Positions 18,001 to 21,000 of a stretch of 64,000 nt of DNA are shown here, in pieces (position 1 is the stretch's first letter; every line of letters begins with the position of its first letter). The stretch spans positions 96,001 through 160,000 of the forward strand of contig JBEKYR010000008.1 of the NCBI GenBank assembly GCA_049510745.1. Reading direction: 5' to 3'. A program made the position numbers. This stretch comes from Verrucomicrobiota bacterium (lineage in GTDB: Bacteria > Verrucomicrobiota > Verrucomicrobiia > Limisphaerales > Palsa-1400).

Positions 18001-21000
18001 AAAGGCCGCGTGCGGCTGTCGCGCAAAGCGGCGATGGAAGAGCGCGAGCGCGAAATGGCGCCGAAGACCTGAGATTGAGCCGGGTCCCAAATCCTCGCCC
18101 AACGCGGCCTTACCGCCGAGCGATGACCTATACAAATTGGATGGGAGAGCGAAGAAGCGGTCGGCGGGGGCGCCGACCGCCCCACGCGAGGGCGCATGCG
18201 CTCCCCGGGATGTACTGCAACGGTTCTTCGGCATCTTCGGAGTTTCCTCCACTTTTTCGGACGGTTGGGGGGTGCCCAGATGTTCTTCTGGTCGGATTCG
18301 GTCGGGCCAAGCCCCCCCTCCCCCCCTTGTCGTGGGGTCTGATTTAGTTTGATTTAGTCTGATTTAGTTTGATAAAGCATGGTTGGGAACCGCCGCGGAG
18401 GCGGCTTTTCCCGGTTCTTCACGCGATTTCAAGAAGCTCCTTGAGGCGCCTTTGCTTGTCTTCCTCGGTGAGAGGGGGCGGGTGCAGTTTGGCTTGATTG
18501 ACTGCCTTTTTGCCCCACTTGACGAACTGCTTTTCGCGTTCGGCCAAGGCGTTGTCGCGCTGGAATTTGAGGCGCTCGCGCTCGAGTTGCACCCAGTCGG
18601 CAGCGTTGTCGGATCGGGAGAGGGTGGCCATTTGCGAGAACAACAAGCGCCAAAGGAGGCGCTTTTCGGGGCCGTCCTGGAGGGAATCGAGACGATGCAG
18701 TTCCAGGGCCAGGCGGGCGGCGCAGAAGGCGCGCAAGCGTTCGTTGAGGGGGCCTTTGGCCGCTTGGGCGAGTTCGGTGGTGCCCTCGATGAGGGAGAGG
18801 GCGGCGTCGGCAGCCTGGTTTTGGGCCAGCCAATCCCGGTAACCGCCCTGGGTCCACTCGGAAAGGTTCTGCGGGCTGATAGGCTGGCTTGCGAAATGGG
18901 CCTTCATTGCGGCCTGGACTGCGGGCTGGGAATTGAGCCATTGGACGAGGGACTCGCCTTTCTCGCCGTCTTGCAGGCGTTGGTTGAGCTGGTCGCGGAT
19001 GGCCAGGGGCAGCCGGGCGATTTTGCCGTTTCTCATGCCAACCTCCAGATATTAAAGTCTGAACGTATCATGGCCGGATTTGAGCACCGTTCAGTCAAAA
19101 GGAAAAACCTACGGAAGGAAGGAAAGTGAATATAAGAATAAGTGAATCAGTGAATCAGTGAATGGATGCACACGGACGCTCACGGACGCACACGGACGCA
19201 CAGGGACGAAGGAAGAGATTGCCGCAAAGAGCGCAAAGAGCACAGAGATAAGGAGTTATGGATTTTTTGAGGGCCGCAGACCTGAACGTTTTCGGGGTGC
19301 AACAAAGTGAATATAAGAATGAGTGAATCAGTGAATCAGTGAATGGACGCACAGGGACGCACACGGACGAAGGAAGAGATTGCCGCAAGAGAGCGCAAAG
19401 AGCACATAGATAAGGAGTTATGGATTCTTTAAGGACCGCAGCCCCGAATGTTTTCGGGGTGCAACACGCAGAGCACGCAGAGGCGGCTGAAAGAGGAACT
19501 TTTTCCGCGAAACGCAGTTAAAAACACCGGAAACCGCAGCGCGGCCAGTTGCAATCAAAAAAAGACGGACAGGATGAACAGGATTAACAGGATTGAGAAC
19601 AGGTTCAGAAAAGAGAATTCCCCTCTTTATCCTGTGCATCTTGTTCATCCTGTCTGAAAATTTTGTCAATAAAACAAACTTTTTCAGGATAGCAGGACGA
19701 GGAATTTCGACCGGGGCAGTATGGGTGAGATGCTCACGCGTGTTGCCCATTTGTCTTTCTCCACGGCTCAAGCTTGCTCCTCGCTGAGGGGGGCGAAACT
19801 ACAGTTTGACCCGTTCGTATAACAAATACCAATTCCCTAGGCCCCTTCACCTTCACTGTCGAGATGCTCCGTCGCCGCAGTCACGCGGGACGAGATTCGA
19901 TCTAAACTATTACACCCCTTCACGTCTGAACCGCAACAGTGTCACTACGGCGAATCTTTATTCGTCGGGGATTTGTTGTGCGAATTGGCCATGGAATCCA
20001 CCTTCTCCCGTAGCAATCTTACTTCCTTGATGAGTTCTCTGATTTCGCTTTCATGGTTCTTGTTGGCTGATTCGAGAAAAAAACTGGAAATGTAAGCCGT
20101 AAACGTTGCAAACAGGCCGACCCCGGCAATCATCAAGAGAACCGCAACACCTCTGCCTTCGAGTGTAACCGGGTACTTATCTCCGTATCCGACTGTTGTC
20201 ACGGTTGTAATTGCCCACCATAATGCGTCGTATACAACGTGCGCCGACGTCAACGCAGGCGTCGGGGAGTTTGGGGAGTTGTTCCAGATTGTCGCCGCAA
20301 TAAATGACGCGGGTGTCCACGAGCGCGGAGGAGGTCATCCGTGAGGGCGCGGGCGGGTTCACGTCGGATTTCGTCGCCATGAGGGGAGTTTAGGGAAACG
20401 GCGCGAAAAGAAAAGCATATCTCGGATCTCAAATTTCAGGGAAATGCGGCCACCCAAATCCTAACGCGGCCTTACCGCCGAGCGATGACCTATACGATTA
20501 ACGAAGAAGCGGTCGGCGGGGGCGCCGACCGCCGCACGCGAGGGCGCGGGCGCTCCCCGGGATGTACTGCTACGGTTCTTTGGATTTGGGCGGGTCATTT
20601 CCTCTTGAACGTAAAAATGGCGTTGTCGGTTTTGCGCTCTTCTGCCGCGGCTTCCCTGCCCCAGCGGTACTCGGTGTGGGACGGGTAGATTTCCGCCACG
20701 CCGACTAAATCATACCCGGAGCCGGGGTAACGGCGGATCCAATTGAAAAGGGCCGGGTCGGCGTCCGCCCAGGTCATCCAGGAAGTGCCCGTATTGACCA
20801 CGACGAGAAACTCCGGTTTGGCCGTTTCGACATCGTGGATGAATTCCTGTTGCATGGCGCGGGCGTAGGGCTGGGGTTCAACCAGATCGTACATGTAAAT
20901 ATAGCCGCTGACGGAACGGCGCTGGGCGTAGAAATAAATCTCCGGCTCCGATCCGACCACGGCGAGGCGGTCCCGCGGCGCGGAGTGCTCGCGGATGAAG

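Follow-up and report, generated by a model that had tools for sequence, protein, structure and literature searches.

Dispersed TerS-like cassettes with 10-bp-periodic tracts beside accessory islands in Verrucomicrobiota genomes

Gene transfer agents (GTAs) are regarded as packaging host DNA nearly at random; why they are not captured by selfish sequences is an open question. MITEs are internal-deletion derivatives of parent transposons, and A-runs that recur in phase bend DNA. The criteria for a GTA include packaging and delivery of mostly random host DNA and a head too small for the agent's own genes, according to the accessible text of one account (PMC9662315). The pac site of phage SPP1 is described as containing repeats, spanning promoters and being read as bent DNA or DNA shape (PMC4737164, accessible portion), the first cut of Mu as lying in host DNA at some distance from the end (PMC5557969, accessible portion), and the C-terminus of the small terminase TerS as the segment that interacts with TerL (PMC6854486, accessible portion).

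The locus described here is closest in protein family to the Mu gp27-type TerS (PF11985, PHROG 426), with which it shares a helical DNA-binding N-domain, a coiled coil and a C-terminal helix. Viral members of that type lie before TerL and portal and are without a tract, whereas the chromosomal clade is multi-copy, mostly without TerL behind, and tract-ended. The pac sites of SPP1 and SF6, as far as the accessible text of PMC4737164 describes them, likewise have repeats and promoters beside terS, but there these stand at the 5' end of the gene in one phage genome, whereas here the position is 3' and the number of chromosomal sites about 70. The unit of these tracts varies in sequence at a fixed period, which a shape read-out as at SPP1 pac would explain.

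The window locus and the family of its TerS-like gene

The window is a stretch of 64,000 nucleotides from the genome of a Verrucomicrobiota bacterium (G000), and the locus within it consists of the following parts, given by window position and strand.

18419..19036, minus: TerS-like gene of 205 aa, with an N-terminal helical, HTH-like domain, a long coiled coil and a C-terminal helix
18419..18478, minus: last 19 codons and stop of this gene, a putative TerL-docking helix
18385..18412, minus: GC-rich hairpin directly past the terS stop codon
18335..18377, minus: 10-bp-periodic tract of AAATCARACY units (family F2), a presumed bent TerS-loading array
18312..18326, minus: two G-runs closing the F2 tail
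19033..19071, minus: 12-codon leader frame directly behind the promoter-like element, its stop overlapping the terS start (ATGA)
19078..19118, minus: head B, a putative promoter with a near-palindromic box (19108-19118) and a -10-like hexamer (19078-19083)
19119..20594, no strand: accessory island on the head side, made of stacked short repeat modules and gene fragments
18085..18230, plus: REP-like repeat with about 22 genomic copies, bracketing the island together with a second co-oriented copy at 20453-20583
15940..18072, plus: core gene faced by the tract and convergent with terS, by its sequence probably polynucleotide phosphorylase

The F2 tract starts about 40 nt 3' of the terS stop, and its AAATCARACY pattern had no match in 100 shuffles. 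The 141-nt region behind the stop folds no better than shuffles (z -0.54), an Rfam scan of 17500-20600 returned no match, and the sigma-70 consensus was not found at the head of the gene. Near-identical DNA is present in peat metagenomes, with no RNA dataset among those listed; gene and head are identical across three studies (contigs from four metagenome runs), and no empty allele was found in four metagenomes, nor does any listed joint skip the element.

Searched alone, the window protein gave no match in Pfam and a weak one to the TerS PHROG (E 0.036), and its closest named homologue, L256 from Limisphaerales, is 53% identical. It has 871 homologues. PF11985 (Mu gp27) was matched by 19 of 69 homologues at E up to 0.1, with a best value of 0.00026, and on viral contigs the family gene lies between gp26-like genes and TerL-portal (directly 5' of terL and portal in L375, L347, L341 and L388), a position that the window gene, unlike the viral members, does not occupy. 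The genome-wide survey's note had proposed a phage derivation for the terS-like genes, and this is supported by that viral synteny together with two members, L388 and L084, that match the TerS PHROG at E about 1e-9. On synteny and profile (PF11985 / PHROG 426), the window gene family is predicted to be Mu gp27-type TerS. In the structure model of the window protein (pLDDT 89, pTM 0.48), a helical N-domain is followed by a long coiled coil and then a terminal helix; its best relevant viral match in a fold search is a DUF3486 protein (weak, E 0.13), a fold search against the PDB returned generic helical hairpins (Z up to 8.1), and a PDB sequence search with the family profile gave nothing significant.

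In a quick tree of 127 rows, which excludes rows shorter than 150 aa or without the helix motif and whose genome rows come from the best 80 of 328 matches, with a bias toward the query, 79 chromosomal rows fall on one side of a long branch (SH-aLRT 99), and 47 viral rows with one prophage-like row on the other. A tract stands at the 3' end of 47 of 96 chromosomal homologues versus 0 of 56 viral ones, and its units share an AATC-N-R-R-C core across homologues; TerL lies behind the chromosomal family gene in only one of the 96. An earlier count of only 3 tract-ended homologues among 28 proved too low, the figure being 11 of 32 under a looser score (own genes, 24 of 3260) and 47 of 96 in the larger set. 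Five related phage records contain no tract anywhere, and none of 29 viral loci with the generic tract pattern lies close to a family gene. Because the tract is absent from the phage homologues and from these five records, it was not inherited as a pac site. Of 30 family genomes, 28 have homologues, a somewhat wider spread than the 23 of 30 first reported, and in 19 of 150 other genomes drawn from the class. Overall, the family represents a phage DNA-packaging gene that has moved out into chromosomes of Verrucomicrobia from soil and peat.

Tract families, short copies and the polarity of islands

G000 contains, besides an operon TerS, five full-length terS-like paralogues and one 5' fragment. 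Among tandem periods of 6 to 15 in this genome, period 10 is the most frequent (106 tracts; shuffled G000 gave 0 at periods 9-11), and 83 of these 106 tracts fall in the five families that end the five terS-like genes. Each full-length gene was seen to end in its own 10-bp tract with an A- or G-run (5 of 5), as first described; the description of the genes as solitary does not hold, since two immediately follow extra TerL genes and a third is found 3 kb behind another such gene. A BLAST recount of the copies in each family gave 27, 18, 9, 6 and 16 (g01420 first, window gene second), in line with the 25, 17, 7, 3 and 14 counted before. That each gene had spawned its copies is supported for g01420, of whose 27 copies 25 extend 40 nt or more into the gene side, but not for the other four (0 of 18 for the window gene, then 2 of 9, 0 of 6 and 0 of 16). 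For the window gene nothing beyond the tract is shared in G000 (0 of 18), and the mutual similarity of F2 copies stops about 22 nt beyond the tract. The g01420 copies are 75-91% identical to the gene, one of them over 256 nt, and descent of copies from gene in G000 appears supported for g01420 only. Two of its short copies lie in the window.

36363..36774, minus: short F1 copy with box 36764-36774, a 118-codon frame (36724-36368) in frame with the g01420 tail, and tract 36363-36421
57990..58504, plus: short F1 copy with box at 57990, frame 58040-58504 and tract 58341-58407; 256 nt of it (58157-58412) are 91% identical to the g01420 3' end

Such copies had been called gene-less, and this term no longer fits, as 30 of 31 headed copies have an open frame up to the tract. 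Counted from the ATG behind the head, 19 of 19 head-B copies and 11 of 12 head-A copies have a frame that stays open as far as the tract. In the +1 frame this is so for 0 of 31 copies, and in the +2 frame for 1 of 19 head-B and 10 of 12 head-A copies. A neutral simulation leaves the frame open at 0.43-0.65 per copy, the copies being related and hence not independent, and the pN/pS values of the short-copy frames are 0.67 and 0.47. What is kept seems to be translation up to the tract, rather than the peptide itself.

From its sequence, the recurring unit can be read as a cassette composed of a putative operator box with a promoter-like head, an open frame, and a 10-bp-periodic tract with an A- or G-run. 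Full cassettes carry a predicted TerS-like gene, and some TerL too, while the short ones appear to be internal deletions or head-tail mosaics. Their size is 0.2-0.9 kb, or 5.6 kb with TerL and cargo. Heads and tails occur in mixed combinations, and tails stack co-oriented, the tracts at 14 multi-tract sites of G000 always pointing the same way. The copies have no inverted termini and no fixed ends; their right ends are ragged, mostly 0-230 nt beyond the tract, and their left ends equally so (median 55 nt versus 43 nt on the right), and the direction of packaging is therefore not deducible from the ends. Direct repeats of at least 22 bp occur at 5 of 63 sites, one of them perfect and unique; duplicated target DNA is evident at a single site, and the 5.6-kb unit from TerL to g01420 is bracketed by a perfect duplication of a core promoter of at least 30 bp. 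No covariation of HTH and tract is visible in 52 tracts, nor any sequence code linking the recognition helix to the tract unit.

In the congener G002, 52 matches comprise 2 full-length and 50 partial ones, and the partial loci, nearly all as visible among the 27 loci listed, run from the head through the first ~43 codons and a deletion (453 nt in its common form) to the gene 3' end and the tract. These copies derive from L016, the orthologue of the window protein and 53% identical to it, and the descent from gene to copy looks much clearer here than for g01420. None of 12 mappable G002 sites bears a tract in G000; the cassettes sit at lineage-specific sites. With one degenerate pattern, mass expansion is seen in only 3 of 31 family genomes (G000, G002 and G022). 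G022 has 164 tract matches and 11 TerS-like matches, and G027 has 13 matches; both are fragmented drafts, 89% complete, in which no TerL, capsid, Mu portal or tail tube was found. In G022, 20 of 20 loci are without an opposed tract. The head box is multi-copy in G004 (28 matches) and G026 (46), where a single tract-like unit flanks it, and is absent from G012 and G017. In G005, the order is terS-tract-terL.

Tracts point toward core DNA, and heads toward an accessory island. With native genes defined by a codon-usage proxy from our own gene calls, or by BLAST to those genes, a native-codon gene resumes nearer the tract side than the head side at 58 of the 64 scorable sites (of 71) in G000, at a median distance of 190 bp behind the tract versus 2310 bp ahead of the head; a REP-like repeat, taken as a control, has the same polarity at 13 of 21. 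In 42 of 49 islands of at least 1.5 kb, the tract lies within the final 15% of the length. This polarity is 11 to 0 in G002, weaker in G022 (8 to 3), and 24 to 4 with 19 ties at 47 loci in other Verrucomicrobiota. Of the repeat-bearing islands of at least 2 kb, 47 of 89 bear a tract.

Cargo of these islands includes methylases, nucleases and toxin-antitoxin genes; among 150 cargo ORFs from 39 islands there was no integrase family, nor, in the same scan, a primase or replicase family. An adjacency to defence genes had been reported, and it is not significant when tract islands are compared with tract-less repeat-bearing ones (13 of 39 versus 7 of 39, p 0.19); restriction-modification alone gives 5 of 39 versus 0 of 39 (p 0.055). 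This comparison took 40 of 59 eligible sites (every third dropped), of which 39 were scanned with at most four ORFs each, excluded 12 truncated or gene-bearing sites, missed restriction genes extending past 3.5 kb, and used categories set after the hits had been seen. The link to defence genes seems to reflect, for the most part, location in accessory islands.

The resident particle cluster and competing explanations

G000 carries a portal-protease-capsid-tail operon and a separate lysis-terS-terL cassette, at two loci between housekeeping genes. Both particle operons lie behind the head box, as the survey's note had said, and the box, with 25 strict copies in the genome, likewise precedes a TerL, g01420 and the window gene; it is also found 5' of portal and packaging operons and TerS-like genes in G002, G004 and G026. 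The cluster proteins include TerL, portal, protease and adaptor, with a capsid candidate picked by Atlas features (0.98), whose structure model is low (pLDDT 34) and whose PDB search was negative; a phrog_113 search had no match anywhere and was uninformative. The last 19 residues of the window TerS are identical at 18 positions to those of the C10 operon TerS, with 10 synonymous and 1 non-synonymous codon differences.

The capsid candidate is conserved at 68-92% identity in 11 of 30 family genomes, its gene being split in two in G002 and G017, and the Mu portal is present in 18 of 30; a related cluster with a second portal type occurs in 3 of 5 genomes of genera lacking the Mu portal. The two-locus layout between housekeeping genes recurs in G012 and G017, and the loci are contiguous in G001 and G016. 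A capsid tree of 12 rows, most forks of which are weak and whose alignment is without the g4/g7 clusters, which use another head type, clusters by genus with 3 changes (minimum 2), and 1 of 200 shuffles was as low. No Mu transposase was found beside the clusters in a BLAST of their flanks against own genes combined with a partial PHROG scan; a Mu-transposase C-domain match is weak and lies elsewhere. No Mor/C activator was found in 5 genomes, and genes upstream of some distant homologues had no match in G000. These head/tail and packaging operons appear to stand under a common box and to be conserved like a gene transfer agent.

The explanation that we prefer, tentatively and at a little short of an even chance, is that selfish, integrase-less packaging cassettes parasitise a domesticated Mu-derived, GTA-like particle system and bias packaging in favour of their own islands. 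The regulator that activates the particle operons would also turn on the cassettes through the shared box. A TerS ring would load onto the phased and probably bent tract, aided by transcription and translation up to it, and its C-terminal helix would recruit the resident TerL. As in Mu, where the cut falls outside the end of the phage, TerL might then cleave a short, variable distance past the tract and package back across cassette and island. Recipients would take up the block by homology on the long side and, where the cut was made, by short homology or micro-homology. Islands that lie behind a cassette would travel more than average DNA, tract-side insertions would break the drive, and short copies would use TerS made elsewhere. 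Such a chain of steps would explain the ragged ends, the one-sided cargo and the non-autonomous copies; the terL behind the tract in G005 fits poorly with a cut just past the tract, and the ragged left ends are not a neat fit either. A pac-like role of the tracts, which we infer, gains from the TerL-docking-tail match, the shared operator box and the island polarity, and loses from the copy-rich drafts G022 and G027, in which no packaging gene was found. The tract-less half or so of the chromosomal homologues, the confinement of mass expansion to 3 family genomes, the split capsid genes of G002 and G017, the weaker polarity in G022, the lack of a code between recognition helix and tract unit and of an empty allele in the four metagenomes, and the open second frame of head-A copies speak against this cassette-packaging reading, and the same two drafts speak against dependence on a resident helper.

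The helper could instead be an incoming Mu-like phage rather than the resident cluster, with a phage late activator switching the cassettes on, their TerS acting as a decoy for TerL, and islands packed instead of phage DNA. Related terS genes in 56 viral contigs would agree with this, as would copy-rich G022 and G027 without a resident machine found; satellites are thought to redirect packaging by TerS (PMC9618062, accessible portion), and a terminase-targeting defence, TerI, is known (10.1101/2025.02.27.640495, accessible portion). However, it is the TerS of the resident operon that the tail matches, the cassettes share their box with the resident operons, and defence genes are not significantly richer in the cargo than in other islands; we consider an outside phage unlikely.

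A capsid-free route, in which a TerS ring pairs tracts or holds ends, in the cell or in transforming DNA, and host repair inserts the cassette by micro-homology beside core genes, would account for G022 and G027 without packaging genes, for tracts that are stacked and always co-oriented (at the 14 sites of G000 and at 20 of 20 G022 loci), and for the core-promoter duplication around the 5.6-kb unit. Anchor-plus-illegitimate joints have been proposed to build polar arrays (PMC5361080, accessible portion). We hold this route to be distinctly unlikely, as neither the conserved TerL-docking tail nor the shared late box follows from it, and direct repeats are confined to the 5 sites given above.

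The orientation of downstream genes bears on a regulatory reading, in which TerS-like HTH proteins tune a particle regulon and are titrated by the tracts, while the heads serve as inducible promoters that are portable and read into host genes, with passive spread. Tracts point into a co-oriented gene at 48 of 71 sites (p 0.004), frames are kept open, and G004 and G026 have the single tract-like unit beside the box; yet 23 of 71 tracts face a convergent gene at a similarly short distance, the sites are not common to congeners, and the pN/pS of the short frames is only 0.67 and 0.47, so that we regard this reading as improbable. Debris, meaning remnants of decayed prophages together with ordinary repeats, whether REP/RAYT or retro-mobilised, that gather in islands, would suit a genome rich in other repeats, with one reverse transcriptase gene and a best-partner identity among copies of 66-96% (no very young copy), but it is weakened by the polarity and frame tests and very improbable, given strict polarity not seen for the control repeat, a single chromosomal clade across the phylum, open frames, copies that contain DNA upstream of the presumed start site, and G005 and G012, which are rich in TerS-like genes and have no reverse transcriptase match.

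Comparison with known systems

If packaging cassettes do exploit a resident particle, their nearest counterparts in function are phage satellites. The PICI/SaPI satellites and the marine VEIMEs carry their own TerS, thought to redirect helper packaging (PMC9618062, accessible portion), and accessory and defence cargo. These satellites differ from the present cassettes, which have no integrase in 150 cargo ORFs, no replication module of their own and no fixed ends, and which occupy dozens of dispersed sites with a resident, non-replicating cluster as the likely helper. The cassettes work most like a phage-satellite TerS, yet the integrase and replication typical of such satellites were not found.

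The resident cluster shares with the GTAs (RcGTA, BaGTA and BhGTA) head, tail and packaging genes that are host-chromosomal, often split and conserved, and that seem to follow host genera. On the points that a genome can speak to, it consists of Caudoviricete-derived proteins endogenised over several loci, with no replication or integration genes, as a GTA would. The cluster differs from described GTAs in being Mu-derived. RcGTA has a TerS without HTH and, in the accessible text of PMC6854486, no known GTA packaging sites, whereas here there are many HTH-bearing TerS variants and candidate sites; in BaGTA, packaging bias comes from local replication (PMC9662315, accessible portion).

With MITEs the cassettes have in common a full element and internal-deletion derivatives that keep both ends, high copy number and lineage-specific bursts (G002 and the g01420 family). 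They differ in having no terminal inverted repeats, fixed ends or transposase and, it seems, no general target duplication, and in that the encoded protein is, by prediction, a packaging subunit. No description of TerS-tract cassettes was found in the literature searched, most subscription papers and supplements lying outside that search.

It is possible, though on the doubtful side, that the cassettes constitute a new class of mobile element without integrase, transposase or replicase, in which a terS gene with a packaging-start array drives itself and its MITE-like derivatives and islands into the particles of an undescribed Verrucomicrobiota GTA, turning near-random transfer into dozens of programmed starts. 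The cassettes look like a selfish capture of a GTA, laid out as dozens of mapped sites per genome. This would, if true, explain mechanistically where small accessory islands arise in a phylum that is abundant in soil and peat, and the resident cluster points to a candidate Mu-derived GTA outside the known groups. The feature is real and phylum-wide, with an anatomy that matches none of the families tested. Should the packaging model fail, a TerS-encoding element that has non-autonomous derivatives and a strict polarity still stands apart from every known family with which it was compared.

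Joints and leader frames of the cassettes

In the genome that holds the window (G000), a perfect repeat of at least 30 bp brackets the unit composed of head, TerL, cargo, head, terS and tract at C8:64315-69998, outside the window, and this repeat belongs to the promoter of the core gene that follows. Short leader frames lie directly behind the promoter-like element in the window (19033-19071), upstream of the portal on contig C23 and in the copies of the congener G002, and their ends overlap the gene by ATGA, which looks like leaderless, coupled translation. Behind two of the G002 cassette copies (L045 and L052), both at contig ends, lies the same sequence, which we take to be group II intron domain-V-like.

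Arrangement and variants of TerS-like genes

The single-contig genome G005 carries at least six stand-alone terS-terL pairs (L081, L083-L087), three of which are preceded by a different palindromic box; mostly, accessory genes lie ahead of terS and a core gene directly after terL. TerS-like genes also occur in tandem, two or three per run (L007, L011, L013, L015, L018), often with the tract behind the first gene. The TerS-like genes at L009, L010, L014 and L024 encode 333-349 aa with C-terminal extensions, presumably resembling Sel1 repeats. In distant Verrucomicrobiota (L025, L258), an unannotated 330-aa gene family with the motif WDF...CCxWEYARES lies upstream of TerS-like genes; it has no match in G000 or in PHROGs.

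Other elements in the window and genome

Window 19162-19212 and 19342-19372: further period-10 family, GGACGCACAC units
Window 24293-25812: ORF pair within a low-GC stretch, assumed here to be an HNH-like ORF and a Dam-like methylase
G000 C15:29156-33623: small integrated element that carries a gene resembling integrases and short phage-like ORFs and gives a weak Mu-transposase C-domain match

The GGACGCACAC family comprises seven tracts in the genome, and no TerS-like gene was found behind it.

Resident particle operons

G000 C23:50096-63991 and C10:72762-77119: split head/tail and lysis/packaging operons; also at L088, L090-L097 and L428-L432

These operons are conserved in several genera, with two portal types, and on their own make a candidate gene transfer agent of Mu descent.
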